Shown here: one piece after another, positions 10,868 through 29,308 of the stretch
Layout: every line of letters starts with the position of its first letter
Numbering within the stretch: position 1 is the stretch's first letter
Source: a virus
Taxonomy: Duplodnaviria; Heunggongvirae; Uroviricota; Caudoviricetes
IMG/VR virus record: IMGVR_UViG_2695420367_000003
Location: 1 to 35,451 of that record
Direction: 5' to 3' (one strand)
DNA length: 35,451 nucleotides
Made by a program: the position numbers and the translations under genes
The notes under the pieces: model-generated
What the model saw: only the letters and a program-made list of their open reading frames with translations
Told to the model about the DNA's origin: nothing
Database searches by the model: none

Positions 10868-11247
10868 GCAATCTTTGCTAATTAGCCATGAAATAGATAA
10901 ATATCAGGCCAACGATGATTAGTGCCAGGCATCCTAATTGGTCAGAATGGCTGGCATTTGATCGTCTTGCTCTTCTTGCAGTTGACTGGACAGCCCTCTG
11001 TCCTCGACTTCCTCTTGGCATTCCTCTCATTTATTCTCTCTCAACATTGATATTGAACTGACAGATGATAATTATTTCATGAAAGTGGTATCTCGTTGAT
11101 TTGATTACGCTACATAGTCGCCGGATTTTCGCATTTATCGGCATCGGGCGGTGCAAAATTGGCATAATCGAAACGTAGAGTTTTTGGCTGACAACAGCAT
11201 TAGCGGTCACCCGGAGAGTGTTGTGAACATGTTAATTACATGACGCT

Positions 11248-11568
11248 TTAGATGCATCGACATTTGATGATGCTTGTCAGACCTGTCATTTTCTTTGCTT
11301 CATTTTCAACATTGAGGAAGTTGGTTGAGCATATTTTTTGATAATCTCCAGTTGTGAATCCTGTTTTATCGATCTTACGTTTCAAGGGATTAATCGTTTT
11401 GCAAGATGCTCTATGGATTCTGGTAAAGCGTTCGTCAGATTTATTACCTTTACCTCTGGTTCGCTTCAATGCATTGACAACATATCCGTCTGGATTATCG
11501 CCAAGCCAATTACGATAGTCTGATTCACTCTCAGTCTGAAGGTCACTTCTGAATACCTTTATGGACAT
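11248..11568 (-). CDS. Hypothetical protein where lambda carries bor (possibly the DLP12 ybcV/DUF1398 family)
   Basis: Minus-strand ORF with AGGAG RBS before MSIKVFRSDLQTESESDYRNWLGDNPDGYVVNALKR...; family assignment tentative, from memory. Confidence 0.5.
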   Translation of the reverse strand: MSIKVFRSDLQTESESDYRNWLGDNPDGYVVNALKRTRGKGNKSDERFTRIHRASCKTINPLKRKIDKTGFTTGDYQKICSTNFLNVENEAKKMTGLTSIIKCRCI

Positions 11569-11699
11569 GAAGATACTCCTGTGCATTTATGGTACGAAGA
11601 AATAGCAAAAGGATTTTTACCGTAAATTGCGAATCTACAAAAGCAAAACAATGCGTAATATCAGAGTGAATATTCTGCCTTTAATGTGGGTCCTTCTGA

Positions 11700-11900
11700 T
11701 GACCTGAGCTCTCACGGGGCGGAAGGCGCGCGGGTTTTCGCTATTTATGAAAATTTTCCGGTTTAAGGCGTTTCCGTTCTTCTTCGCCGTAACTTAATGT
11801 TTTTATTTAAAACCCCCCCTGAAAAGAAAGGAAACGACAGATGCTGAAAACGGGCTTTTTGGCCTTTGTCGTTTCCTTTCTCTGTTTTTGTCCGTGGAAT
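11700..11900 (+). promoter_or_regulatory. cos: Helper cos site (cosN-like 12-mer at about 11717-11728, plus cosB with R sites and IHF site) upstream of Nu1
   Basis: …GGGCGGAAGGCG CGCGGGTTTTCGCTATTTATGAAAATTTTCCGGTTTAAGGCGTTTCCGTTCTTCTTCG… is nearly identical to the lambda cos region as I recall it, except within the 12-mer. Confidence 0.8.
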
Positions 11901-11905
11901 GAACA

Positions 11906-12425
11906 ATGGAAGTCAACAAAAAGCAGCTGGCTGATATTTTCGGTGCGAGTATCCGTACCATTCAGAACTGGCAGGAGCAGGGAATGCCCGTTCTGCGAGG
12001 CGGTGGCAAGGGTAATGAGGTGCTTTATGATTCTGCCGCCGTCATAAAATGGTATGCCGAAAGGGATGCTGAAATTGAGAACGAAAAGCTGCGCCGGGAA
12101 GTTGAAGAACTGCGGCAGGCCAGCGAGGCAGATCTCCAGCCAGGGACTATTGAGTACGAACGCCATCGACTTACGCGTGCGCAGGCCGACGCACAGGAGC
12201 TGAAGAATGCCAGAGACTCCGCTGAAGTGGTGGAAACCGCATTCTGTACTTTCGTGCTGTCGCGGATCGCAGGTGAAATTGCCAGTATTCTCGACGGGAT
12301 CCCCCTGTCGGTGCAGCGGCGTTTTCCGGAACTGGAAAACCGACATATTGATTTCCTGAAACGGGATATCATCAAAGCCATGAACAAAGCAGCCGCACTG
12401 GATGAACTGATACCGGGGTTGCTGA

Positions 12426-12451
<26 letters not shown>
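11906..12451 (+). CDS. Nu1: Terminase small subunit Nu1
   Basis: MEVNKKQLADIFGASIRTIQNWQEQGMPV… matches lambda gpNu1. Confidence 0.95.
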
Positions 12452-16132
<3,681 letters not shown>

Positions 16133-16152
<20 letters not shown>

Positions 16153-17452
16153 TCTCCCGCATATTGCCAGTATGGCCTTTAATGAGCCGCTGATGCTTGA
16201 ACCCGCCTATGCGCGGGTTTTCTTTTGTGCGCTTGCAGGCCAGCTTGGGATCAGCCGCCTGACGGATGCGGTGTCCGGCGACAGCCTGACTGCCGGAGAG
16301 GCACCCGCGACGCTGGCGTTATCCGGTGATGATGGCGGGCCACGACAGGCCCGCAGTTATCAGGTCATGAACGGCATCGCCGTGCTGCCGGTGTCCGGCA
16401 CGCTGGTCAGCCGGACGCGGGCGCTGCAGCCGTATTCGGGGATGACCGGTTACAACGGCATTATCGCCCGTCTGCAACAGGCTGCCAGCGATCCGATGGT
16501 GGACGGCATTCTGCTCGATATGGACACACCGGGCGGGATGGTGGCGGGAGCATTTGACTGTGCTGACATCATCGCCCGTGTGCGTGACATAAAGCCGGTA
16601 TGGGCGCTGGCCAACGACATGAACTGCAGTGCAGGTCAGCTGCTTGCCAGCGCCGCCTCCCGGCGTCTGGTCACGCAGACCGCCCGGACAGGCTCCATCG
16701 GCGTCATGATGGCTCACAGTAATTACGGTGCTGCGCTGGAGAAACAGGGTGTGGAAATCACGCTGATTTACAGCGGCAGCCATAAGGTGGATGGCAACCC
16801 CTACAGCCATCTACCGGATGATGTCCGGGAAACACTGCAGTCCCGGATGGATGCAACCCGCCGGATGTTTGCACAGAAGGTGTCGGCATATACCGGCCTG
16901 TCCGTGCAGGCTGTGCTGGATACCGAGGCTGCAGTGTACAGCGGTCAGGAGGCCATTGATGCCGGACTGGCTGATGAACTTGTTAACAGTACCGATGCGA
17001 TCACCGTCATGCGTGATGCACTGGATACACGTAAATCCCGTCTCTCAGGAGGGCGAATGACCAAAGAGACTCAATCAACAACTGTTTCAGCCACTGCTTC
17101 GCAGGCTGACGTTACTGGCGTGGTGCAAGCGACGGAGGGCGAGAACGCCAGCGCGGCGCAGCCGGACGTGAACGCGCAGATCACCGCAGCGGTTGCGGCA
17201 GAAAACAGTCGCATTATGGGGATCCTCAACTGTGAGGAGGCTCACGGACGCGAAGAACAGGCACGCGTGCTGGCCGAAACCCCCGGTATGACCGTGGAAA
17301 CGGCCCGCCGCATTCTGGCAGCTGCACCACAGAGTGCACAGGCGCGCAGTGACACTGCGCTGGATCGTCTGATGCAGGGGGCACCGGCACCGCTGGCTGC
17401 AGGTAACCCGGCATCTGATGCCGTTAACGATTTGCTGAACACACCAGTGTAA
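16133..17452 (+). CDS. C: Head protease/scaffold protein C (GTG start)
   Basis: MTAELRNLPHIASMAFNEPLMLEP… matches lambda gpC; 20-nt overlap with B as in lambda; the track ORF start at 16019 is upstream of the true start. Confidence 0.9.
16847..17452 (+). CDS. Nu3: Scaffolding protein Nu3 (internal in-frame start within C)
   Basis: In-frame ATG (MDATRR…) 714 nt downstream of the C start, the same offset as lambda Nu3 relative to C. Confidence 0.7.
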   Translation: MDATRRMFAQKVSAYTGLSVQAVLDTEAAVYSGQEAIDAGLADELVNSTDAITVMRDALDTRKSRLSGGRMTKETQSTTVSATASQADVTGVVQATEGENASAAQPDVNAQITAAVAAENSRIMGILNCEEAHGREEQARVLAETPGMTVETARRILAAAPQSAQARSDTALDRLMQGAPAPLAAGNPASDAVNDLLNTPV

Positions 17453-17461
17453 GGGATGTTT

Positions 17462-17794
17462 ATGACGAGCAAAGAAACCTTTACCCATTACCAGCCGCTG
17501 GGCAACAGTGACCCGGCACATACGGCAACCGCGCCCGGCGGATTGAGTGCGAAAGCGCCTGCAATGACCCCGCTGATGCTGGATACCTCCACCCGTAAGC
17601 TGGTTGCGTGGGATGGCACCACCGACGGTGCTGCCGTTGGCATTCTGGCGGTTGATGCTGACCAGACCAGCACCACGCTGACGTTCTACAAGTCCGGCTC
17701 GTTCCGTTATGAGGATGTGCTCTGGCCGGAGGCTGCCAGCGACGAGACGAAAAAACGGACCGCGTTTGCCGGAACGGCAATCAGCATCGTTTAA
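17462..17794 (+). CDS. D: Head decoration protein D
   Basis: [40 protein letters not shown]… matches lambda gpD; AAGGGA RBS. Confidence 0.95.
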
Positions 17795-17849
17795 CCTTAC
17801 CCTTCATCACTAAAGGCCGCCTGTGCGGCTTTTTTTACGGGATTTTTTT

Positions 17850-18125
17850 ATGTCGATGTACACAACCGCCCAGCTGCTGGCGGCAAATGAGCAGAAATTT
17901 AAGTTTGATCCGCTGTTTCTGCGTCTCTTTTTCCGTGAGAGCTATCCCTTCACCACGGAGAAAGTCTATCTCTCACAAATTCCGGGACTGGTAAACATGG
18001 CGCTGTACGTTTCGCCGATTGTTTCCGGTGAGGTTATCCGCTCCCGTGGCGGCTCCACCTCTGAATTTACGCCGGGATATGTCAAACCCAAGCACTTAGC
18101 ATGGCTTTCTGAGGCTTTCGTGTAG
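17850..18125 (+). pseudogene. E: Major capsid protein E, 5' portion only (codons 1 to about 82), interrupted by the satellite insertion
   Basis: MSMYTTAQLLAANEQKFKFDPLFLRLFF…SEFTPGYVKPKH matches the lambda gpE N-terminus, then diverges into 9 unrelated codons and a stop at the insertion junction. Confidence 0.9.
18085..18094. repeat. Left junction core (attL-like) AACCCAAGCA
   Basis: Identical 10-mer at 28518-28527; joining the flanks restores …GTCAAACCCAAGCATGAAGTG… (VKPKHEV of E). Confidence 0.75.
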
Positions 18126-18257
18126 TTGCTGGTTTTTACACTTAATCTTTTGATAATAAAGAATAAGTTTATCTGGCGCTTTCACTGGATTTTCCTCGTT
18201 ATCTGTGTGTTGCAATCATCTCTGTATTGCAGCTTGTATTGCTTTTTGGGGCTAAAA

Positions 18258-19493
18258 ATGGCTGGCGAGAACAAACTGAGCGACAAAGCACTTAAAGGAT
18301 ATCTGGGGAAACCCAGAGAAAAGCAGATCACCATTGCTGATGGAAAGGGGCTTTCTATTCGTGTGAGTACCAAGGGGGCTGTGAGCTTTGTTTTCTTCTA
18401 CAGGTTAGCAGGTGGCCGGGCTGCTCCGGTCTGGCTAACGTTGGGTAAATATCCTGATATGTCACTCAAACAGGCAAGGGAAAAGCGCGACGAGTGCCGT
18501 GGTTGGTTGGCTGACAAACGTGATCCGCGTATCCAGATTAAGATTCAGGCTGAAGAACGCTTAAAGCCGGTCACAGTGGAGGATGCACTAAATTACTGGT
18601 ATGAAAATTACTGTAAGGTGCGTCGTAAAACTCATGCTGTAACGCTTGGCAGATTTCGAAAGCATATCTTTCCCTATATCGGTCATTTGCCCGTAAATGA
18701 CACTCACCTATATGAATGGCTGGACTGTTTTGACCGAATTAAACGTAATGCACCAGTTATGGCGGCGTATGTTTTTTCTGACACTAAATTAGCTCTTCGT
18801 TTTTGTCGGGTACGCCAGTACGCGACGTGTGATGCTTTAAAGGATTTGCGCATGAGTGATGTGGGGCAGATTGCAGGTAAGCGGGATCGGGTTCTGGATG
18901 AAGCCGAACTGGGCCAGCTCTGGAAGGCAATTTTTGTCGAGCCTGATTTAAAACTAATGTCTGAATACACGCGAAAAATGTTTGTGCTTTGTACAGTATT
19001 TGGATGTCGAATGAGTGAAGCCCGATTATCAGAATGGAGCGAATGGGATCTCGAAAGTTGGGTTTGGACTGTACCAAAAGATCACTCAAAAACTGGTGTT
19101 GAAATCGTCAGACCAGTACCTGAAATTCTACGACAGTGGGTAACGGATGTTCACGAAGAGACAAAACATACTGGTTATGTGCTGGGAAGTCTGCGAATTA
19201 GAGAAAGCGTAAGCAAGATTGGGGGGAAAATCGGTAAACGTTTGGGCCATGAAAAACAATGGTCACTACACGACCTTAGAAGAACGCTTTCAACCCATCT
19301 GAGTGATTTGGGCGTTGAGTTTCATGTAGTGGAGCAGCTGTTAGGCCATGCGCTACCTGGCGTGGCAGGTGTTTACAACCGGAGTAAGTTTATGGCTAAA
19401 AAACTGGATGCTCTGGAACTCTGGACTACATATCTCAATAGCATCGCAGCTGCTGATTCAAAAGTGACAATCCTCAAACAAAAGGCTGGTTAA
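18258..19493 (+). CDS. int: Tyrosine integrase (P4-type, with N-terminal arm-binding domain)
   Basis: N-terminal …LSDKALKGYLGKPREKQITIADGKGLSIRVSTKGAVSFVFFYR…; catalytic-region motifs HDLRRT…LLGH…VYNRS; true ATG at 18258, the track start is upstream. Confidence 0.88.
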   Translation: MAGENKLSDKALKGYLGKPREKQITIADGKGLSIRVSTKGAVSFVFFYRLAGGRAAPVWLTLGKYPDMSLKQAREKRDECRGWLADKRDPRIQIKIQAEERLKPVTVEDALNYWYENYCKVRRKTHAVTLGRFRKHIFPYIGHLPVNDTHLYEWLDCFDRIKRNAPVMAAYVFSDTKLALRFCRVRQYATCDALKDLRMSDVGQIAGKRDRVLDEAELGQLWKAIFVEPDLKLMSEYTRKMFVLCTVFGCRMSEARLSEWSEWDLESWVWTVPKDHSKTGVEIVRPVPEILRQWVTDVHEETKHTGYVLGSLRIRESVSKIGGKIGKRLGHEKQWSLHDLRRTLSTHLSDLGVEFHVVEQLLGHALPGVAGVYNRSKFMAKKLDALELWTTYLNSIAAADSKVTILKQKAG

Positions 19494-19494
19494 C

Positions 19495-19728
19495 ATGAAA
19501 AAAATGGCAATTGTCGATAAAAAGGGTCTGGAGTACATTCCTAACATTGACCGTATGATCCGCGAAAAAGAATGCCGTGAGTTAACTACTCTTGCTAATA
19601 GCACTCGATGGAAGTTAGAGAAAGAAGGAAAGTTTCCAAAGCGTATTAAAATAGGTGCCACTGCCGTAGCATATCGCCTTTCGGAGGTGCAGGCGTGGAT
19701 TCGTGGGGAATGGTACTTAAATAAGTAA
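19495..19728 (+). CDS. alpA: AlpA-family HTH regulator/excisionase-like protein
   Basis: …ECRELTTLANSTRWKLEKEGKFPKRIKIGATAVAYRLSEVQAWI… fits the AlpA pattern; directly follows int. Confidence 0.8.
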   Translation: MKKMAIVDKKGLEYIPNIDRMIREKECRELTTLANSTRWKLEKEGKFPKRIKIGATAVAYRLSEVQAWIRGEWYLNK

Positions 19729-19736
19729 ATCATTTC

Positions 19737-19765
19737 AATTAGGTAGGTTTATTACCTACCTAATT
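19737..19765. terminator. Perfect palindrome AATTAGGTAGGT-TTATT-ACCTACCTAATT between convergent genes (bidirectional terminator candidate)
   Basis: Seen directly: 12-bp perfect inverted repeat with a 5-nt loop, between the alpA stop and the stop of the minus-strand 241-aa gene. Confidence 0.6.
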
Positions 19766-19768
19766 AAT

Positions 19769-20494
19769 TTAAATCATGTCTGCCTTATTTCCTAATTTTA
19801 TGGAGCAATCCTCTAAAAGATGCCCGATGAACTTATGAGTTCCAATAACATAATCTTGAAGCCTATATTCCATTCCTAATAATGACTTGTTCTCTTTGTC
19901 CTTGAAAAAAGGAAAAGAGGCAAGGTTTTCATCGACAATATAAAGGTGTTTGATTTTGTTGTTTAAAACCCTAGTTTCGTTAATGACATCGTAAGAATCA
20001 AGTTGGGAGAGGTCAATACCATAACTTAAGTATTTCTTTTTTAATTTATCCCATGTATATGGAACTTTAACTTGACTTTCAGGTATTTCTTTAATAATTG
20101 CTTCTAGCAAAGAGTATGCCATGGTACTAAACTGTTCAATAATAGCCCAAAGATTAATTACGACACTGTCATTGGCAAAAAATGAGGCTTTTCTATTAAG
20201 ATCATCATAATAACCAACCATCTCTCTATGTCTGGCTTGAGAAATCAAGGCCATTTCATGCACTTCATCGTCTAATAAGTCTGGATTATATTGGGGAGTG
20301 TTGTCTGCAATTTTTTGTATCTCCTTAAGATTTATGTTATATGTATGATAAACAAATGAGTGAAATACTATTAGATCTTCAAGTCGGAACGAAAATTTCC
20401 CAAGTAGAGACAGGAATCTACTATCATGAGGGAAATAATGTGGGATAGGATTGTCTGTTAAATTATATTCACTTATTCGTTTTAGATTTTGCAT
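19769..20494 (-). CDS. Hypothetical 241-aa protein, AT-rich cargo (function unknown)
   Basis: Long ORF, visibly AT-rich versus surrounding genes, co-oriented and 24 nt downstream of the RHH gene; no motif I recognise. Confidence 0.6.
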   Translation of the reverse strand: MQNLKRISEYNLTDNPIPHYFPHDSRFLSLLGKFSFRLEDLIVFHSFVYHTYNINLKEIQKIADNTPQYNPDLLDDEVHEMALISQARHREMVGYYDDLNRKASFFANDSVVINLWAIIEQFSTMAYSLLEAIIKEIPESQVKVPYTWDKLKKKYLSYGIDLSQLDSYDVINETRVLNNKIKHLYIVDENLASFPFFKDKENKSLLGMEYRLQDYVIGTHKFIGHLLEDCSIKLGNKADMI

Positions 20495-20518
20495 CTCTCA
20501 CAGATCCTTTTAAAAGTC

Positions 20519-20713
20519 TTAACCTCTAGGTTCAATACCTTGTTTGCGTAGTTCTGCTCTTGCTAGTTCTTTAAGCCAATTAGCCAAACTCATTCCTTCT
20601 TTTGCAGCCGCACTAACCATTTGTTCTTTTAGTTCCGGGTGGATACGGATCTGAAATGCCGGTGCCTTACCAGCACCTTTCGGCTGTTTATCGCGCTGAA
20701 TGATAGTTGACAT
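20519..20713 (-). CDS. Ribbon-helix-helix (CopG/Arc-like) DNA-binding protein; candidate repressor or antitoxin
   Basis: 64 aa; …FQIRIHPELKEQMVSAAAKEGMSLANWLKELARAEL… is typical of RHH proteins; first gene of a leftward operon diverging from the replication module. Confidence 0.65.
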   Translation of the reverse strand: MSTIIQRDKQPKGAGKAPAFQIRIHPELKEQMVSAAAKEGMSLANWLKELARAELRKQGIEPRG

Positions 20714-20716
20714 GTA

Positions 20717-20817
20717 TGTACCTATTGCTTAGTATGCTTCTTGATAGGTACACACCTTATCATGTTTTATTACTCTGTAACAACGCCCTGCAGTGCTCGC
20801 AACACATACAGGGCGTT
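20717..20817. promoter_or_regulatory. Divergent control region with two 9-bp inverted repeats, each with an 18-bp spacer
   Basis: TGTACCTAT…ATAGGTACA (20717-20752) and AACGCCCTG…CAGGGCGTT (20782-20817), between the divergent RHH gene and the 20853 ORF. Confidence 0.5.
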
Positions 20818-20852
20818 TAACCACCAACGATAGCAACAGTATCGAGGTAGCT

Positions 20853-21056
20853 ATGAGAAATCATACCACACACCCGCAAGGGCGGGACCCGCACAACCTG
20901 AATAAATACATCTGGCGTTTTATCGCCCTGAGTACGGCACAACCGCGCGTGATTACCATCGAGGCCACCAGCGAACAGGAAGCCCGCCAGCAATCCCCAA
21001 CTGGCTGCGTGATGATATTCGCCGCCCGTATTCGTCAGGAGGTGTGCCATGAATGA
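20853..21056 (+). CDS. Hypothetical small protein (67 aa)
   Basis: GAGGTAG RBS before the ATG; first gene of the rightward operon leading to the primase. Confidence 0.5.
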   Translation: MRNHTTHPQGRDPHNLNKYIWRFIALSTAQPRVITIEATSEQEARQQSPTGCVMIFAARIRQEVCHE

Positions 21057-21273
21057 TCTTTATTTGAAAGTGCTGACACATGCTGAAAACGCGCTCGTTT
21101 GTGGCAAAAATATGCGAGAAATCTTATCAACCTGGCTTGATGGGACAACAAATGCGGAACACGATGAACGGGATGCTAATTTAGCTGGAGCGTTAATTAC
21201 GTTACTTGATCCTGTCATCAAAGAGCTGGATGAAGCTATAAAAATACACGACCAGAGCTATACCGGAGAATAA
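21049..21273 (+). CDS. Hypothetical small protein (74 aa)
   Basis: AGGAGGTG RBS; start overlaps the upstream ORF stop. Confidence 0.5.
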   Translation: MNDLYLKVLTHAENALVCGKNMREILSTWLDGTTNAEHDERDANLAGALITLLDPVIKELDEAIKIHDQSYTGE

Positions 21274-21276
21274 AAA

Positions 21277-21564
21277 ATGAAAAATAAATTTTCTGGCTTT
21301 ATTGCCAGCGGTCAAACTCATTCAAAAATCAGCCTTGGGGATATTTTCAAAGACAGCTATGGCTATCGGGTAAAGATTATTTCGGTTGATGATCGTCGTG
21401 TCTCTTATTTGCGTGATGGTTATGATTTTGAATGTGTTATGCCGCGTCAGCAGTTCGAAAGAGATTTCATTCTGGTAAAAAATTGCAAGACAGATAATCA
21501 GAGGCGTGCCGCAGGCTATATCCGTAAAATTCGGGCAATGTTAGTTGCCGGAGGTAACAAATGA
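21277..21564 (+). CDS. Hypothetical small protein (95 aa)
   Basis: GGAGAA RBS; stop overlaps the primase start. Confidence 0.5.
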   Translation: MKNKFSGFIASGQTHSKISLGDIFKDSYGYRVKIISVDDRRVSYLRDGYDFECVMPRQQFERDFILVKNCKTDNQRRAAGYIRKIRAMLVAGGNK

Positions 21565-23381
21565 AACGTGCTCCGAACTTAAAATACCAACCGCGCGACA
21601 AAATGACGGAAGTCATCATTTTTGCTGGCAGTGATGCCTGGAGCCATGCAAAAGAATGGAATGAATGGGCAGGTAAGCATATTGCAGCAGATGATACACC
21701 ACCAGTCATTCTGGGTACAGAACAACTGGAAAACCTGGATGATATGCAAATTATCGATGAAGGCCGTCATTATGTGCGTGTTTATCGTGCTGGAAAGATT
21801 GCAGAGAAAAGTCTGACGAAGGTTGCGACATTACTTGCTATTGCAGGCGTAAAGGAAGCACGTTGTTACCGTAGCTTTGTTGATCGAGAGCCTGAAGACT
21901 GGACTCCGCGCCTTGTCGGCCTAAAAGCTGAAGCGGAGCATGGGGAAAGTCTGGTGATTGAACTGCCAGTGAAGAAGGCAGAGCGCAAAAATGACGAGCG
22001 TGCTTCATCTTTGGCGTTGAATCAGATGGGGGCCAGCCAGCGCGGTGAAGTTCTCCTTGCACATTACGGCGGCGAACTGGCAATCAATGCCGACTCTGAC
22101 ACCGTTCATCATTACAACGGCGTTGTATGGGAGCCGGTTCAGGATAAAGAGTTACAGCGTGCTATGGCGCAGATTTTCATTGATGCGGAGATCAGCTATT
22201 CGCAGAACGCTATTAAATCGGCGGTAGATACCATGAAGTTAAGTTTGCCTGTAATGGGGAATACAGCCCGTAACCTGATTGGATTCAGTAACGGGGTATT
22301 TGATACCAGAACTGGTAATTTTCGGGAGCATAACAAAAACGACTGGTTGTTAATTGCCAGTGAATTACCTTTCAGCCCACCAGCAGAGGGGGAAACGCTG
22401 GCAACACATGCGCCGAATTTCTGGAAGTGGTTGCGCCGTTCGGTGGCTGAGAATGACCGCAAGGCAGATCGCGTACTGGCGGCATTATTCATGGTGCTGG
22501 CGAACCGGTACGACTGGCAGTTATTCATTGAGGTAACAGGGCCGGGGGGAAGTGGTAAAAGTGTGATGGCGGAGATTTGCACCATGCTGGCGGGTAAGGC
22601 GAATACAGTATCAGCAAGCATGAAGGCGCTGGAAGATGCAAGGGAACGTGCGTTAGTGGTTGGCTTTTCGCTGATTATCATGCCGGATATGACCCGCTAC
22701 GCTGGTGATGGGGCAGGGATTAAGGCCATTACAGGCGGTGACAAGGTGGCAATTGACCCGAAACACAAAGCCCCCTATTCAACGCGTATTCCGGCAGTAG
22801 TGCTGGCGGTTAACAATAACGCCATGTCATTCAGTGACCGCAGCGGGGGGATCTCACGTCGTCGGGTGATATTCAATTTTTCGGAAGTTGTACCGGAGAA
22901 CGAACGCGATTCGATGCTGGCGGAAAAAATAGAAGGTGAGCTGGCGGTAGTGATTCGTCATCTGCTTACACGGTTTGCTGATCAGGACGAAGCCAGACGC
23001 CTGTTATATGAGCAGCAGAAATCTGAAGAAGCACTGGCGATAAAGCGAGAGGGGGATTCGCTGGTGGACTTCTGCGGCTATCTCATGGCATCGGTAATGT
23101 GTGATGGCCTGTTAGTGGGTAATGCTGAAATTGTGCCATTCAGCCCACGCAGGTATCTCTATCATGCCTATCTGGCTTATATGAGGGCACATGGGTTTGG
23201 TAAACCTGTAACACTGACGCGCTTCGGTAAAGATATGCCGGGGGCAATGGCGGAATATGGCAGGGAGTATATGAAACGGAAAACGAAGCACGGTTTGCGT
23301 TCAAACGTGACACTGACGGAGGAATCAGAAGACTGGATGCCATCATGTGTATCGGTCACTAATGACGATAGCAAAAATTAA
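21561..23381 (+). CDS. Phage/plasmid primase-helicase (P4-alpha-like domain with SF3 helicase Walker A GPGGSGKS)
   Basis: 606 aa; Walker A and downstream helicase-like motifs; immediately followed by the iteron array. Confidence 0.85.
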   Translation: MKRAPNLKYQPRDKMTEVIIFAGSDAWSHAKEWNEWAGKHIAADDTPPVILGTEQLENLDDMQIIDEGRHYVRVYRAGKIAEKSLTKVATLLAIAGVKEARCYRSFVDREPEDWTPRLVGLKAEAEHGESLVIELPVKKAERKNDERASSLALNQMGASQRGEVLLAHYGGELAINADSDTVHHYNGVVWEPVQDKELQRAMAQIFIDAEISYSQNAIKSAVDTMKLSLPVMGNTARNLIGFSNGVFDTRTGNFREHNKNDWLLIASELPFSPPAEGETLATHAPNFWKWLRRSVAENDRKADRVLAALFMVLANRYDWQLFIEVTGPGGSGKSVMAEICTMLAGKANTVSASMKALEDARERALVVGFSLIIMPDMTRYAGDGAGIKAITGGDKVAIDPKHKAPYSTRIPAVVLAVNNNAMSFSDRSGGISRRRVIFNFSEVVPENERDSMLAEKIEGELAVVIRHLLTRFADQDEARRLLYEQQKSEEALAIKREGDSLVDFCGYLMASVMCDGLLVGNAEIVPFSPRRYLYHAYLAYMRAHGFGKPVTLTRFGKDMPGAMAEYGREYMKRKTKHGLRSNVTLTEESEDWMPSCVSVTNDDSKN

Positions 23382-23394
23382 ACTTATGGAATAA

Positions 23395-23620
23395 CTGTTC
23401 ACCACTGTTCACCCTGTCATAAATATCTTTTATATCAGTATATTATAGGGTGAACAGTTATTTATGAACTGTTCACCAAACTATTCACTGTTCACCTTTT
23501 TGATTGTTTATTGAGCTTCAAGGGTGAACAGTGGTGAACAGTTGGTGAATAGTTTTTGTGAAACTGTTCACCCATTAACATTATGAATTAAAAGAGAAAA
23601 TATCAAAAGGTGAACAGGTG
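23395..23620. repeat. Satellite replication origin: at least 10 copies of the iteron GGTGAACAG/CTGTTCACC in both orientations
   Basis: Seen directly: the motif recurs at about 23396, 23406, 23449, 23469, 23489, 23524, 23534, 23545 (variant), 23565 and 23610 within an AT-rich stretch downstream of the primase. Confidence 0.8.
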
Positions 23621-23668
23621 AAGGGTTAAAACGCAAAAATTTTAATTTACTGCTGTGAGATAAAGCCT

Positions 23669-23914
23669 ATGACAGCGAAGCACACAAAAAAATCACAATC
23701 GCACGCCCTTGATTTGACGGAACACTGGTTAAGGGTGTCGATAAAAATCATCGACCGCAACGCCGGGGAAGGATACGCGAAAGCACATCCCGAACTGATT
23801 AGCGCATTCATGACAACGGCGGCTGCAAACTTTGCCACTCTGACCGAACGGGAGATTGCTGAAGCGGAGGAAGTGACAACAATCAATATTAAGTCCGGAG
23901 AGCAGGCAGCATGA
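23669..23914 (+). CDS. Hypothetical protein (81 aa)
   Basis: ORF overlapping the SSB-like gene start; no recognisable motif. Confidence 0.45.
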   Translation: MTAKHTKKSQSHALDLTEHWLRVSIKIIDRNAGEGYAKAHPELISAFMTTAAANFATLTEREIAEAEEVTTINIKSGEQAA

Positions 23915-24360
23915 TGGCGCAAATATCAGTTTACGGGCGGTTGGTGGACGACCCGCAGACAAAACAGACCAGCAAGGGCACCCCCATGACGCTGGCGCGT
24001 ATGGCGGTATCAATGCCCTGCAGTCAGTCGGATGACGGTCAGGCGACGATGTGGTTATCTGTCCTGGCGTTTGGCAGACAAGCCGACGCACTGGCAAAGC
24101 ATCACAAAGGCGAACTCCTGAGCGTGGCGGGTAACATGCAGATGAGCCAGTGGACTGGACAGAACGGCGAAACGCGGCAGGGCTGGCAGGTTATCGCAGA
24201 CAGCGTAATCAGTGCGCGATCGGTGCGACCGGGCGGCAAAAAAGGCCAACAGGGGCAGGCTACTGACGAACTGAACAGAGCAAAACAACAGGCAGATCAG
24301 CAAGGAAGCCAGCCACCAGTGGGAGATAATGAGCAATGGGGAGATGATATCCCGTTTTAA
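23911..24360 (+). CDS. SSB-like single-stranded DNA-binding protein with C-terminal acidic DDIPF tail
   Basis: OB-fold-like N-terminal region parallels E. coli SSB; Gly/Gln-rich linker; C-terminal …EQWGDDIPF. Confidence 0.7.
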   Translation: MMAQISVYGRLVDDPQTKQTSKGTPMTLARMAVSMPCSQSDDGQATMWLSVLAFGRQADALAKHHKGELLSVAGNMQMSQWTGQNGETRQGWQVIADSVISARSVRPGGKKGQQGQATDELNRAKQQADQQGSQPPVGDNEQWGDDIPF

Positions 24361-24375
24361 ATATTGCCAATAAAA

Positions 24376-24401
24376 AAGGCCGGAAAAAATAAATTTTCCG
24401 G
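24376..24401. terminator. Hairpin GCCGGAAAA-AATAAA-TTTTCCGGC downstream of the SSB-like gene
   Basis: Perfect inverted repeat with A-rich and T-rich arms; a possible terminator or attenuator before the capsid genes. Confidence 0.4.
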
Positions 24402-24576
24402 CATGCTACATAAATCCCGACCAAAGGGAGTGAAGATATTAACACTAATTGTCCGCACTGAAGTTGTCACCCCAAAACTTTATACAACATTGCACTCGGT
24501 TGCATGTGTTCGCATGACAAATATCGGTGGTAGCATATATCCACAATTATTTTTAATGAATGCAAAGAGGATGCGT

Positions 24577-25617
24577 ATGGTTGATTTATATTCGCCTACT
24601 CAGCTTGTACAGGTGGTTAATGCTGTAGATGTACAAAAACAACTAAATGCGTTGTTTACCAGTTTGTTTTTTACTCGCTCGGTAATGTTTGAATCGCGCG
24701 ATATTATTCTTGATACAATCGACGATCCAAATATCCCAATTGCAGCGTTTTGTTCTCCTATGGTGGGTAGTAAAGTTTCACGTGACGAAGGGTACGAATC
24801 AAAAACAATTCGTCCAGGCTATATGAAGCCGAAAAGCAGCATTGATCCAAATAAGTTAGCTGTGCGCCCTGCTGGTGTATCACCTGAGCAATACAATGCT
24901 TTTGGGGCACGTAATATTAAAGTTAAACAGGCGATTGTAAATCAAGCTAAAGCTATTCGTGCACGTATTGAATGGCTTGCTGTTCAGGCAATCACAACGG
25001 GGAAAAATATCATTGAGGGCGATGGTATTGAACGTTATGAGCTGGACTGGAATATTAAACCACAAAATATCATCACTCAGTCTGGCGGTGCTGAGTGGTC
25101 AGGTAAGGATAAAGAAACTTTTGATCCAAATGATGATATTGAGAGCTACGCAGAATTTAGTGAGGGCGTCACTAATATTATCATTATGGGCGGTAATGTA
25201 TGGAAGAAATACCGTTCATTCAGAGCGATAAAAGAGGCTCTGGATACCCGTCGTGGTTCTAATTCCGAACTGGAAACGGCCCTTAAAGACCTTGGTGATT
25301 CGGTGAGTTTTAAAGGGTATATGGGCGATGTTGCGATTGTTGTATACAGCGGGCGTTATACCGACGAGGACGGAACTGAAAAACATTTCCTTGATCCTGA
25401 TTTGATGGTGCTTGGCAATACGGCTCTTCAGGGGATTGTCGCCTATGGCGGTATTCAGGATCCGGAGCTAATCCGAATGGGGCTGACTAAAGCCGAACTT
25501 GCACCGAAAAACTATATTGTGCCTGGTGATCCGGCTATTGAATATGTGCAGACACATTCAGCACCACAGCCAATACCGGCCCGCATCAATCGTTTTGTTA
25601 CCGTTCGCATTGGCTAA
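24577..25617 (+). CDS. Satellite-encoded major capsid protein, diverged homolog of lambda gpE
   Basis: C-terminal 180 aa align to lambda E (…SGGAEWSGKDKETFDPNDDIESYA…LDTRRGSNSELETALKDLG…GDVAIVVYSG…); N-terminal half diverged but collinear (RPGYMKPKS vs TPGYVKPKH); GAGG RBS 6 nt before the ATG at 24577. Confidence 0.85.
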   Translation: MVDLYSPTQLVQVVNAVDVQKQLNALFTSLFFTRSVMFESRDIILDTIDDPNIPIAAFCSPMVGSKVSRDEGYESKTIRPGYMKPKSSIDPNKLAVRPAGVSPEQYNAFGARNIKVKQAIVNQAKAIRARIEWLAVQAITTGKNIIEGDGIERYELDWNIKPQNIITQSGGAEWSGKDKETFDPNDDIESYAEFSEGVTNIIIMGGNVWKKYRSFRAIKEALDTRRGSNSELETALKDLGDSVSFKGYMGDVAIVVYSGRYTDEDGTEKHFLDPDLMVLGNTALQGIVAYGGIQDPELIRMGLTKAELAPKNYIVPGDPAIEYVQTHSAPQPIPARINRFVTVRIG

Positions 25618-25626
25618 GGGGGAGCA

Positions 25627-25968
25627 ATGGCTACTCATTACACTGAACTCATGGCTGGCACTGAAGCACTGGTGACTACACTGGGGATATTTTCAGCTAA
25701 TAAAGGGGTAATTCATGCATTTACGCCACTGATGCAGGAAGATGCAACAGGTGCACTGGTGGTATGGGATGGTTCGAGCGTAGGTAAAGCGGTTTATGTT
25801 TCCGCTGTACAAATCGACACCGCGAAAAAAACACAGGCTCAGGTCTATAAGACAGGTGTCTTAAATGTTGATGCTCTGAACTGGCCTGAGTCTGTTAAAG
25901 AACTGTCAGTAAAGGTTGCAGCGTTTGTTGGCTCAGGTATTTCTGTTCAGCCGCTGGCTCGTGTGTAA
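25627..25968 (+). CDS. Satellite-encoded head decoration protein, diverged homolog of lambda gpD
   Basis: 113 aa; shares the spaced pattern TPLM…WDG…G…Q.YK.G…WPE…AF.G..ISV with lambda D (copy at 17462-17794). Confidence 0.65.
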   Translation: MATHYTELMAGTEALVTTLGIFSANKGVIHAFTPLMQEDATGALVVWDGSSVGKAVYVSAVQIDTAKKTQAQVYKTGVLNVDALNWPESVKELSVKVAAFVGSGISVQPLARV

Positions 25969-25979
25969 AGGGGGATACA

Positions 25980-26363
25980 ATGCAGAATGATTACAATGAC
26001 CTTAAGCCAATTGCCGAAATGATGTACCCGAATCAAGCTGTAGAGGAATTAAAAGCTATCGCTGACAAAATGTGTTTAAGCGAGCGCCTTGTTGATATGA
26101 ATCAGGTGATGGAAATTACAACCCTGAGTCGTCGTACACTGCTAAACCTTGAGGCTAGTGGAGAGTTCCCGGAGCGTGTGCAGGTTACGGAAGGGCGTAA
26201 GGCCTGGTATTTAAGTGAAGTGATCGACTGGATAAATAATATTCCTCGCGCTTCTGAATATTGCCGCGTACCTGTCCCAAAAAAGCCAGATGCGGCGCTA
26301 TGCCTCAAGATTGAGCGTGTACGCCGCAATGCACGGGATGGTCGCTATAAGCTGATTGGTTGA
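25980..26363 (+). CDS. HTH DNA-binding protein (AlpA/MerR-like motif) adjacent to satellite cos
   Basis: …MEITTLSRRTLLNLEASGEFPERVQVTEGRKAWYLSEVIDWI… helix-turn-helix; last gene before cos. Confidence 0.6.
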   Translation: MQNDYNDLKPIAEMMYPNQAVEELKAIADKMCLSERLVDMNQVMEITTLSRRTLLNLEASGEFPERVQVTEGRKAWYLSEVIDWINNIPRASEYCRVPVPKKPDAALCLKIERVRRNARDGRYKLIG

Positions 26364-26413
26364 TGAAGTTAGGGCCCGCTCTGGCTGGCGGGTCCTTTCC
26401 GGCGATCCAGAAC

Positions 26414-26600
26414 GTTACGGGGCGTCAGGCGCGCAGATTCTTGCTATTTATGACAATTTTCTGCGATTTGCCGTTTCCGTTCTTCTTCCTCGTAACTTAG
26501 TGTTTTTACTAGAAATACCCTCTTAAAAGAAAGGAAATGACAGGTGCTGAAAACAGGCTTTTGGGTCTCCGTCATTTCCTTTCTCATTTTTATCTAAAAG
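26414..26600 (+). promoter_or_regulatory. cos: Satellite cos site (cosN-like 12-mer at about 26420-26431 plus cosB-like R and IHF elements), no terminase gene attached
   Basis: About 190 bp closely similar to the helper cos region (…CGTTTCCGTTCTTCTTC…AAAAGAAAGGAAA.GACAG.TGCTGAAAAC.GGCTTTT…TTTCCTTTCTC…); not followed by Nu1. Confidence 0.8.
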
Positions 26601-26815
26601 TAAGCATCGAGGCCACCCCAAATGCTTATAGAGGTTATTGTGTCACTATGCGTACTGTTCAGGATTTAAAGTAGCAAGACATCTAGTTGCTTGCAGTTTT
26701 GGCGAATGATGTGAGGTTCTCTATAACAGATAATGTAACAAGTTACTGATATATTCTGTTATGGTTGACTTTAAATTCTGTTGCTCCTTCAATGAATTAT
26801 TGAGGGGTGAAAATT

Positions 26816-26841
26816 AGGCGTGATAAGAATCGATCACGCCT
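26816..26841. terminator. Hairpin AGGCGTGAT-AAGAATCG-ATCACGCCT just beyond the 3' end of the minus-strand cargo gene
   Basis: Perfect 9-bp stem; T-rich on the plus side and A-rich on the minus side. Confidence 0.5.
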
Positions 26842-26846
26842 ATTGT

Positions 26847-28163
26847 TTATCTTGAAGAAATTTTAGGCAGGCTTTTTAAAAATAAATCTTTATTTCTACT
26901 TGCATCAGTTAAAAGTGTTAGGAATATTTTATCTGTAGGAGTGCATGTGCTCTTGTTTAACAGTAATTCACCAAGTTTCTGTAATCGAGAGAATTGCCCA
27001 TCCTCTTGGATTCTGTGACGAAGTGTACTATCATTTTTAATAACATCAACAAATGCAGAAACCATGTTAATATCAAAGTATTCAAACATTTCCAATATTA
27101 AAGGTGCAGCCCCATTTGAATAAAAATTCTTCCTTCCATACTGATAGCTGAAACCACGATGGCCAACATAAGTTTTTGTAATGGCTGAAACAAATTCAAC
27201 AATATTATCTTCAGGGACGAAACTCGAGAATGGTAATAATTGGGTTACGATTTTTTCCTCTTCTGACCAATTATCTAAAGACTCGGTGAGTTTATTAATG
27301 AGAGGCTCAATAATAACTTTTCGGGATGCAGGGCTAATATACATCAGTCCATCTACCAATAGTATGAATTGTTGTGCCTTCTCTATCTTATTGTTGTTTC
27401 CTGAAACTAAATACTTGTCAAATTGTTGGCCGACTTTACGTCGGTCGTCTTTTGAAAGTAATGTCCATAAAATAGGTGCGCAAAATTCAATGTTGTTTCT
27501 GAGTTCACTTGATATATTGGATGAGCAGTATGTGCCAAAAAAACGAGAGGATAATTCACTGATATAAATTGCAGGTAGATCTGAAAAGGCTTGCTTAACT
27601 GCCAGACTATTTTTATTAAATGTTGCCGAATCCATTTCTGAAAGATATGTAGATATATCTATGATGGCTGGTGGAAACTCTTTAGAAAGAACGTATTTAT
27701 TACAATCATTAATCAGGTTCACTACTTTGATTAAATCAGGGTCGCTACTTTGTGGATGTCCACCAAATAGATTCCTGGTTTCTCTAGCTTGTTGTAATAG
27801 TTTCTGACCTTCTCGATCGATAACTCCTATTTTAAATGCTCCATCTATTAAATCAAAGTCGCTCACATAATCCTGAAAATCTTCATACGTTTTAATTTCT
27901 TTTTTTTGTTTACACTCTTTGTTGAATAGATCTAGGCTACGATGAATTATCTTTTGACGTAAATCATCAACTACAGCATTCCAGTAAGCAGTGATGGCAC
28001 TTCTATAACCTTTTACAGGAAGAACTCTTATTGCTTCTGAAATATATGGGCAGTCAACTACATCATGCCTCACAGTTGAGAGCGCAGTTTGTAACAATGT
28101 AACTTCTGTAGAGTCTAGTGGAGTTGGCTGCACTAAATGAGAACTTATCTCTGTACCCTTCAT
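26847..28163 (-). CDS. Hypothetical 438-aa protein, AT-rich cargo (function unknown; candidate accessory or defence gene)
   Basis: Long uninterrupted ORF, visibly AT-rich, between satellite cos and the right junction; no motif I recognise. Confidence 0.6.
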   Translation of the reverse strand: MKGTEISSHLVQPTPLDSTEVTLLQTALSTVRHDVVDCPYISEAIRVLPVKGYRSAITAYWNAVVDDLRQKIIHRSLDLFNKECKQKKEIKTYEDFQDYVSDFDLIDGAFKIGVIDREGQKLLQQARETRNLFGGHPQSSDPDLIKVVNLINDCNKYVLSKEFPPAIIDISTYLSEMDSATFNKNSLAVKQAFSDLPAIYISELSSRFFGTYCSSNISSELRNNIEFCAPILWTLLSKDDRRKVGQQFDKYLVSGNNNKIEKAQQFILLVDGLMYISPASRKVIIEPLINKLTESLDNWSEEEKIVTQLLPFSSFVPEDNIVEFVSAITKTYVGHRGFSYQYGRKNFYSNGAAPLILEMFEYFDINMVSAFVDVIKNDSTLRHRIQEDGQFSRLQKLGELLLNKSTCTPTDKIFLTLLTDASRNKDLFLKSLPKISSR

Positions 28164-28517
28164 TTCAGGATTTTCCTATTCTTTTCCATTTTTCTACTCT
28201 ATTGAATTTGAAAAAGATATCAAGTTCGTTCTTGCCAGTTTTAAGTGGAAAAATTGATGTTACCTTATTGAGATAAGGCAGTTCTCTATAACCTATTGTT
28301 ATTAATTATTTTTATTTTTTTTCCAATTCAGATGTTTAGGGCTAAGAAGTTAAGTGAGAGTTCACAGCAAAACTGCTTCTAGTTCCTCACCGAGGAGCAA
28401 AAGGTTAAGACAGCGTACTTTGTATTGCACAATGTATTGCAGAACCTTCTTTCGAAAGCTACAACAATCAATTTTATATTGAAAATTCAATCATATCCTT
28501 TCGATATTGACTCATAT

Positions 28518-28527
28518 AACCCAAGCA
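28518..28527. repeat. Right junction core (attR-like) AACCCAAGCA
   Basis: Identical to 18085-18094; the downstream sequence continues in the E reading frame. Confidence 0.75.
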
Positions 28528-29308
28528 TGAAGTGAATCCGCAGATGACCCTGCGTCGCCTGCCGGATGAAGATCCGCAGAATCTGGCGGACCCGGCTTAC
28601 CGTCGCCGTCGCATCATCATGCAGAACATGCGTGACGAAGAGCTGGCCATTGCCCAGGTGGAAGAGATGCAGGCAGTTTCTGCCGTGCTTAAGGGCAAAT
28701 ACACCATGACCGGTGAAGCCTTCGATCCGGTTGAGGTGGATATGGGTCGCAGTGCGGCGAATAACATCACGCAGTCCGGCGGCACGGAGTGGAGTAAGCG
28801 TGATAAGTCCACGTATGACCCGACCGACGATATCGAAGCCTACGCGCTGAACGCCAGCGGTGTGGTGAATATCATCGTGTTTGATCCGAAAGGCTGGGCG
28901 CTGTTCCGTTCCTTCAAAGCCGTCAGGGAGAAGCTGGATACCCGTCGCGGCTCTCATTCCGAACTGGAGACAGCGGTAAAAGACCTGGGCAAAGCGGTGT
29001 CTTATAAGGGAATGTATGGCGATGTGGCCATCGTCGTGTATTCCGGACAGTACGTGGAAAATGGTGTCAAAAAGAACTTCCTGCCGGACAACACGATGGT
29101 GCTGGGCAACACTCAGGCACGCGGTCTGCGCACCTATGGCTGCATTCAGGATGCGGACGCACAGCGCGAAGGCATTAACGCCTCTGCCCGTTACCCGAAA
29201 AACTGGGTGACCACCGGCGATCCGGCGCGTGAGTTCACCATGATTCAGTCAGCACCGCTGATGCTGCTGGCTGACCCTGATGAGTTCGTGTCCGTACAAC
29301 TGGCGTAA
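28520..29308 (+). pseudogene. E: Major capsid protein E, 3' portion (codons about 80 to 341), separated from its 5' portion by the satellite
   Basis: …KHEVNPQMTLRRLPDEDPQNLADPAYRRRRIIMQNMRDEELAIAQ… to the C-terminus …DPDEFVSVQLA matches lambda gpE; no own start codon or RBS. Confidence 0.9.

Follow-up and report, generated by a model that had tools for sequence, protein, structure and literature searches.

Mutations at base pairs 7–12 of cosN have minimal effects, while changes in the left half of the site are severe (Feiss et al. 2015, PMC4669245). The G2C change cuts yield approximately 10-fold and the symmetric C11G change is without effect, and a 2-bp mismatch between cohesive ends results in an approximately 4-fold loss of viable yield (PMC4669245). 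The cosN of phage N15 is cut equally well by lambda TerL, and lambda terminase and N15-hybrid terminases act without cosN specificity (Feiss et al. 2015, PMC4669245). The placement of TerL is attributed chiefly to TerS, which is bound at R3, and the distance of R3 from cosN is critical (PMC9026076). Phages LLS and mEp213 are reported to have the end GGGCGGCGCGCT (PMC12315714). Satellites have also been described inside the genomes of their helpers, and passages of the report by Tommasini, Mageeney, and Williams (bioRxiv 10.1101/2022.07.18.500453) give 201 helper-embedded satellite (HES) elements in the major capsid gene E.

The stretch of DNA analyzed here, 35,451 nucleotides in length and referred to as the window, contains a lambda-type prophage (the helper), a satellite embedded in the E gene of this prophage, and one cos site for each. 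The cohesive ends predicted for both sites differ from that of lambda. We consider it likely, judging from the sequence comparisons described below, that both 12-mers are natural cosN alleles in complete cos sites, representing a neutral or nearly neutral polymorphism that is served by an unchanged terminase.

The two cos sites of the window

The predicted 5' cohesive end of the helper is the cosN 12-mer GGGCGGAAGGCG at 11717–11728 (+ strand), which was located by alignment to the annotated sticky ends of DE3/lambda, phi80, and N15 and is directly followed by CGCGGGTTTTCGCTATTTATG. The predicted 5' cohesive end of the satellite is the 12-mer GGGCGTCAGGCG at 26420–26431 (+ strand), which was located by alignment, recurs in E. 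coli satellites and in IMG/VR, and is directly followed by CGCAGATTCTTGCTATTTATG. A preliminary description of this DNA had compared both 12-mers with the canonical lambda end. The lambda sequence given there is correct, as the lambda record NC_001416 starts with GGGCGGCGACCTCGCGGGTTTTCGCTATTTATG, the lambda cohesive end is GGGCGGCGACCT, and these 12 bases are annotated as 'cos site' in the DE3 record and as the sticky end in the phi80 record. As that description held, neither 12-mer is that of lambda: there are five differences from GGGCGGCGACCT in the helper (positions 7, 8, 9, 10, and 12) and five in the satellite (positions 6, 8, 9, 10, and 12), and the two 12-mers differ from each other at two positions, namely 6 and 7. 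The rotational symmetry of the site is 10/16 in lambda cosN and 8/16 in both the helper and satellite alleles.

Both sites align without gaps to lambda cos over approximately 200 bp, from cosQ (approximately 30 bp left of the 12-mer) through R3, R2, and R1, indicating that both are real cos sites and not chance similarities. The cosQ-like heptamer GGGTCCT, a motif that is near-invariant across the surveyed cos sites, is found on the + strand at 11688–11694 in the helper and at 26390–26396 in the satellite. It starts 30 nt before the nick in the satellite, as in lambda, and 29 nt before the nick in the helper. The 29-nt spacing was found at 7 of the 233 sites surveyed, always with CACG at the nick. 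The nick context of the helper is likewise CACG and not TACG (window 11688–11716). The seven sites with this spacing fall into two unrelated left-flank families, with the alleles GGGCGGAAGGCG and GGGCGGCAGCGG.

To the right of the 12-mer, the cosB of the helper (11729–11905, + strand) is gap-free against lambda/DE3 and consists of R3, the I1 region, R2, and R1, up to the start of Nu1. The R3 sequence at 11766–11781, AGGCGTTTCCGTTCTT, is identical to lambda bp 50–65 (R3 coordinates from PMC9026076). The cosB of the satellite (26432–26600, + strand) contains R3 followed by R2 and R1 and is phi80-like in alignment with phi80 and lambda. Its R3 core, CGTTTCCGTTCTT at 26472–26484, is identical and lies inside an R3-equivalent (26469–26484) with phi80-like flanks. 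Consequently, the description of the sequence flanking the 12-mers as lambda-like holds for the right flank of the helper but not for the satellite, in which the right flank (CGCAGATTCT...TTTGCCGTTTCCG) and cosB are phi80-like.

Within cosN, the frame of CG, 12 bp, and CG is present in both sites (CG-GGGCGGAAGGCG-CG and CG-GGGCGTCAGGCG-CG), and both keep G2 and C11. The left half GGGCGG is intact in the helper allele, and the satellite allele carries G6T; tolerance of T6 in the satellite allele is suggested by its natural recurrence. Both 12-mers coincide exactly in position with the sticky ends annotated in lambda, phi80, and N15, and the distance from cosN to R3 is the same as in lambda. The earlier proposal of an altered cohesive end thus appears well founded, and the virion ends should carry the variant sequences. 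The positions of the nicks and the cutting of both sites in vivo are predicted here from homology.

The genes that follow the helper site are those of a lambda-type packaging system. Nu1, the terminase small subunit of the helper, is encoded by an ORF at 11906–12451 (+ strand) that is annotated as Nu1 in homologous phages and is 98–99% identical in many loci. Gene A (12426–14351, + strand), identified as an ORF with homologues, encodes the terminase large subunit gpA, the nuclease that nicks cosN. In keeping with the lambda-type requirement, Nu1 and A are directly downstream of cos, with the Nu1 start near bp 190–191, and A is followed by portal, protease, D, and then the split gene E. No match to a Nu1-like gene was found downstream of the satellite cos (after 26420), and an rpp gene is likewise absent in the satellite type found in the window. 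The lack of terminase genes in the satellite is expected of an element that borrows the terminase of its helper.

Homology of the helper to most lambdoid phages starts exactly 3 nt left of the 12-mer (window 11714), and the left flank at 11227–11713 is common to few contigs only. The cos site therefore behaves as a mosaic joint, as expected if packaging between unlike cos sites yields hybrid cos sites.

The satellite embedded in gene E and the integrity of both sites

The helper E gene is present as two fragments. The ORF of the 5' fragment is located at 17823–18125 (+ strand), with intact phages aligning up to 18094, and the 3' fragment is located at 28518–29308 (+ strand), with intact phages resuming at 28518–28520. 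In homologous loci, these fragments are annotated as 'major capsid protein, missing C-terminus' and 'major capsid protein, missing N-terminus', respectively. As intact relatives align to window 11714–18094 and resume at approximately 28518, with an overlap of approximately 10 bp, the break in the alignment places a 10.4-kb element inside E. The coordinates of this satellite (18095–28517, + strand; approximately 10.4 kb) are given by the breakpoints, and its identification is supported by Pfam matches and by recurrence of the architecture in nine E. coli genomes.

The genes of the satellite are, in order, an integrase, a 241-aa ORF (− strand), DUF4222, a D5-type primase/helicase, SSB, an E-like capsid protein, a gpD-like protein, AlpA, cos, and a 438-aa ORF (− strand). 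Apart from the two − strand ORFs, they are on the + strand and co-oriented with E. Pfam matches were obtained to Arm-DNA-bind_3 and Phage_integrase, Phage_AlpA, D5_N/Pox_D5, Phage_cap_E, and HDPD, and the tyrosine integrase is 99–100% identical to those of other E-embedded satellites. By sequence, the element matches the published HES of the capE site group, as these are characterized in passages of the bioRxiv report. The same nesting of a satellite in E was found in nine complete E. coli genomes, all from one similarity search, and in several IMG/VR contigs.

A satellite-free counterpart of the helper is also available. In Z1323HEC0475 (NZ_CP148326), the same prophage is found adjacent to tRNA-Thr/proA with E intact and without the satellite, suggesting that the insertion in the source of the window may be recent. 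The helper cos region is 100% identical over 534 bp in this genome, and the cos region is also 100% identical in Z1323HEC0477. Among complete RefSeq E. coli genomes, none is 100% identical to the satellite cos region, the best being 98.9%.

Several further features of the element and its helper were observed. The E N-terminal ORF (17823–18125) and the integrase ORF (18126–19493) share one reading frame with a single stop codon between them, an arrangement that fits the proposal that helper late transcription enters the satellite. The region between the satellite cos and attR (window 26600–28500) is a variable cargo slot, occupied in the window by the 438-aa ORF (26847–28163, − strand). The slot holds a TIR protein in one relative, HEPN and DUF262 proteins in a second, a DUF2971 protein and a terminase-small-subunit-like gene in a third, and another hypothetical protein in a fourth, and it looks like a hotspot for defence genes. 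The 438-aa ORF has no Pfam match, and PADLOC gave no matches for the 438-aa and 241-aa satellite ORFs and two prophage cargo ORFs. The two large prophage cargo genes (1811–5719, + strand, and 5756–6799, − strand) are flanked by the replication genes on one side and the ybcN-to-Q (nin) region on the other; in a homologous prophage, the first is annotated as an inverse autotransporter beta-domain protein (1,302 aa) and the second as an alpha/beta hydrolase. In E. coli ET665, the satellite capsid gene (locus 15235–16275) is annotated with an internal stop, which agrees with the published dispensability of satellite capsid genes.

The interruption of the capsid gene raises the question of whether the prophage is defective, with one or both cos sites in decay and no longer cut, in line with an earlier suggestion of a degenerate, non-functional cos. 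The 29-nt cosQ spacing of the helper, as compared to 30 nt, could be read in the same way, and passages of the HES report state that the prototype yielded no plaques to its authors (bioRxiv 10.1101/2022.07.18.500453). However, precise excision of the satellite would restore E, and excision of the prototype is described in passages of the same report (bioRxiv 10.1101/2022.07.18.500453). The subsites of cos are intact, with cosQ, the CG-12-CG frame, and R3-R2-R1 present in both sites, as are Nu1 and A in the helper. Furthermore, the alleles recur without a single base change in many independent contexts, hosts, and countries, and the helper allele recurs in the complete phage PhiR46_1. The satellite itself is found in E. 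coli of unrelated hosts on several continents, in helpers that vary in cos allele and left flank, which points to ongoing transfer. Decay appears extremely improbable on this evidence, and the earlier suggestion of degeneracy does not seem to hold.

Distribution of cosN alleles and their relation to terminase and partner

The prevalence of both alleles was examined with two pattern scans of IMG/VR, the first anchored on the flanks of cosN and the second on cosQ and cosB with a base other than A at position 9. The first pattern fixed positions 1–5 of the 12-mer, and the frequencies are approximate. The scans jointly returned 14 alleles beginning with GGGCG among at least approximately 230 cos sites. 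The lambda end GGGCGGCGACCT, dominant in the first scan and excluded from the second, was found at 98 or more loci. The helper allele GGGCGGAAGGCG was found at a minimum of 40 loci and, among the matches listed, 36 are phage-type sites adjoining an intact Nu1 and 2 are in satellites. The N15 end GGGCGGCGTCCG was found at no fewer than 34 loci, and the satellite allele GGGCGTCAGGCG at 19 or more, with 17 of the 18 that could be classified among the matches listed located in satellites. Over all alleles at these sites, the left half GGGCGG hardly varies, and the changes are seen at positions 6–10 and 12. An intermediate allele, GGGCGGCAGGCG, is one step from the helper allele and one step from the satellite allele.

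Exact 32-mers across cosN place the helper allele in 155 of 5,426 complete E. coli genomes (166 places, 16 of them on plasmids) and the lambda allele in 4,096 of these genomes (7,402 places). A terminus-calling tool that searches for GGGCGGCGACCT would consequently overlook a few percent of the lambda-type cos sites in E. coli (166 versus 7,402 places). The helper allele is also present in two GenBank phage records, YDC107_1 and PhiR46_1, the latter of which is, judged from its record, a complete N15-like linear plasmid prophage with a full lambda-type set of head and tail genes. A collection of 50,697 phage records contains no instance of the satellite allele within its own flanks. Since YDC107_1 is classified as a Ravinvirus, it was considered whether the helper allele is the N15-type end; this was rejected, as N15 itself has GGGCGGCGTCCG. 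Among the matches listed, the helper allele is found with 15 left and 4 right flanks and the satellite allele with 8 left and 6 right flanks. Since cos is where the genome arms join, the alleles reassort with numerous flanks on both sides.

The preliminary description raised the possibility of altered nicking specificity, wherein the variant 12-mers reflect a co-adapted terminase and canonical lambda terminase would fail on them. Five of 12 bases are unlike lambda and rotational symmetry is down to 8/16, and TerL makes local contacts with cosN (PMC9026076), all of which could be taken to favor such a change. The distribution of terminase sequences points the other way. A gpA that is 99–100% identical to that of the window adjoins four alleles, namely lambda GGGCGGCGACCT, GGGCGGAAGGCG, GGGCGGCGACCG, and once GGGCGTCAGGCG, and the canonical lambda end is found beside a gpA that is 99.2–99.7% identical to that of the window in dozens of loci. 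When 4 carriers of the helper allele were compared with 28 of the lambda allele, no residue of gpA or Nu1 was diagnostic, none being fixed in one group and absent from the other. Additionally, the satellite allele resides in helpers with the lambda allele. All five changes in the helper are within bp 7–12 (bp 7–10 and 12), the part of cosN that is tolerant of mutation, and the absence of cosN specificity in lambda and N15-hybrid terminases also argues against a change in specificity (PMC4669245). A co-adapted terminase is therefore very unlikely, and this part of the earlier description is not supported by the comparison. In a true phage context, IMGVR_UViG_2802429218_000003 (cos at locus position 1100, − strand) has GGGCGTCAGGCG together with Nu1 and gpA that are 99% identical to those of the window, indicating that a terminase essentially like that of the helper has GGGCGTCAGGCG as its own cos.

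The pairing of satellite and helper alleles was also examined. All nine sampled E. coli satellites have GGGCGTCAGGCG, and their helper has the lambda end in 8 of 9 cases and GGGCGGAAGGCG in APEC E14033 only. The satellite allele characterizes the lineage of satellites embedded in gene E, the helper allele is a minority phage allele, and GGGCGTCAGGCG is a usable marker for satellites of this kind. The 12-mer is joined to at least four types of cosB. In the window, it is followed by phi80-like R3-R2-R1 without terS. In a second type (six loci), a distinct cosB precedes a 34–38% identical Nu1-like gene that is probably Rpp. The third type is lambda-like and occurs with or without a 72% identical Nu1-like gene (carried by three loci), and the fourth is the variant CGCAGTTTTT.... 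One satellite lineage thus has three recognition set-ups after the same 12-mer: R3-R2-R1 without a small terminase, a distinct cosB with a distant Nu1-like protein, and a lambda-like cosB with a 72% Nu1 homologue. Among sister satellites in which the capsid, gpD-like, and AlpA proteins are 94–99% identical, two have the lambda allele and one has the helper allele, and the lambda allele is found in at least 13 satellite loci in IMG/VR.

These pairings bear on two proposals. The first, also raised in the preliminary description, is that the ends of helper and satellite co-evolved, with the satellite matching the helper and accumulating 2 mutual differences versus 5 from lambda. In the window and in APEC E14033, the two alleles do share the 3' half AGGCG and are unlike only at positions 6 and 7. 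However, the same satellite is paired with the canonical lambda end GGGCGGCGACCT in 8 of 9 sampled helpers, and the same prophage occurs free of the satellite in Z1323HEC0475. Furthermore, cohesive ends need to match within one molecule only; a packaged molecule receives both of them from copies of its own cos, so the mechanism does not require the satellite to match its helper. Co-evolution can be given hardly any credence on these grounds and is not sustained as an explanation of the likeness between the two ends.

The second proposal is that satellites keep a private end, GGGCGTCAGGCG, under selection because it is incompatible with the usual helper ends, so that chimeric chromosomes cannot cyclize. 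Such chimeras could arise in two ways: in an unexcised composite, packaging could start at the satellite cos and run round to the helper cos, or DNA of the two elements could be joined end to end. Both cos sites have the same orientation and are separated by 14.7 kb, and the inferred span from satellite cos to helper cos is approximately phage-length. The near-restriction of GGGCGTCAGGCG to satellites (17 of 18 classifiable IMG/VR loci among the matches listed and 9 of 9 sampled E. coli satellites) would be expected, and persistence of the 12-mer over at least four cosB types and eight left flanks is more constant than strict neutrality predicts and could reflect selection. The end mismatches the lambda end of 8 of 9 helpers at 5 of 12 positions, and a 2-bp mismatch alone carries an approximately 4-fold cost in yield (PMC4669245). 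In contrast, near relatives have the lambda allele (two) or the helper allele (one), with the lambda allele in 13 or more satellite loci, and helper and satellite in the window differ by just 2 nt, a mismatch at which viability has been demonstrated. Descent with linkage to the adjacent AlpA gene explains the pattern equally well, and chimeric chromosomes are not known to carry a fitness cost. Selection for a private end is thus unlikely; if true, it would represent a barrier of sticky-end incompatibility between a parasite and its host phage. More generally, heterologous ends would restrict annealing between different elements, which is relevant to cosmid and in vitro packaging and to models of cos recombination.

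The sequences of the two ends, their homology to annotated sticky ends, their prevalence, and their lack of association with terminase sequence or partner allele are established here, and natural polymorphism suggests a simple course of events. Nu1 of the helper would bind the R sequences of cosB and position gpA, and gpA would then introduce nicks in the two strands, offset by 12 bp and positioned as in lambda. Prophage virions would contain DNA with 5'-GGGCGGAAGGCG ends and satellite virions DNA with 5'-GGGCGTCAGGCG ends, and each element would cyclize with itself, since copies of its own cos supply the two ends. The changes are located mainly where a lambda-type nuclease is expected to read little sequence, while the left GGGCG and the flanking CG are kept, such that a change in terminase would be unneeded.

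Comparison with described cos sites and satellites

The satellite is most readily compared with the HES capE group, exemplified by Eco567.11capE in prophage 61icd of E. coli NRG857c. As characterized in passages of the HES report, elements of this group are approximately 10–11 kb, are located in and co-oriented with E, and have a 10-bp identity. They also share with the satellite of the window an integrase, AlpA, a primase, an E-like capsid gene of their own, the lack of terS, and a cos-like stretch that is approximately 90% identical to the helper cos. The passages of that report on the shared cos-like stretch treat it without analysis of the 12-mer; the present analysis adds the allele typical of satellites and the helper alleles with which it is paired. 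The Rpp-type Gram-negative PICIs, such as EcCICFT073 (PICI-A), are likewise satellites of lambda-like cos phages, with cosQ and cosN near those of the helper and an equal cosQ–cosN spacing (Fillol-Salom 2019, PMC6739421; Murialdo and Feiss 2022, PMC9026076). In contrast to the satellite of the window, in which phi80-like R3-R2-R1 are present and a Nu1/Rpp-like gene is lacking, these PICIs lack phage-type R sequences and have rpp just after cos (PMC9026076). Thus, neither feature that defines this type, an rpp gene after cos encoding a winged-HTH protein with a Nu1-like N-terminus or a cosB without phage-type R sequences, is seen in the satellite.

Among phage ends, that of N15, annotated as GGGCGGCGTCCG, is a natural and experimentally studied precedent. 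It also belongs to a lambda-type cosN, differing from lambda in the right half at bp 9 and 12 and having G at position 12 as in both window alleles. There are two changes in N15 as compared to five in each window allele, the N15 cosB contains R3 only while both window sites contain R3-R2-R1, and the satellite allele is additionally altered in the left half at bp 6. With lambda itself, both sites share GGGTCCT approximately 30 bp upstream, the CG-12-CG frame, R3 at bp 50–65, an inverted R2, and R1. The helper further shares the right flank of lambda, lambda-type gpA and Nu1, and a Nu1 start at bp 190–191. The differences from lambda are the five of 12 cohesive-end bases changed in each window allele, the helper cosQ spacing of 29 and not 30 nt, and a helper left flank that is unrelated beyond cosQ.

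A survey by Vahanian, Oh, Sippy, and Feiss, reportedly in Virology in 2017 (509:140), is said to have found that the cosN of lambda-like phages is naturally polymorphic. By analogy, the window alleles may be regarded as further examples of the natural variation covered by that survey. The variant ends are then unremarkable representatives of a polymorphic series of lambda-type cohesive ends that is already known, with little mechanistic import.
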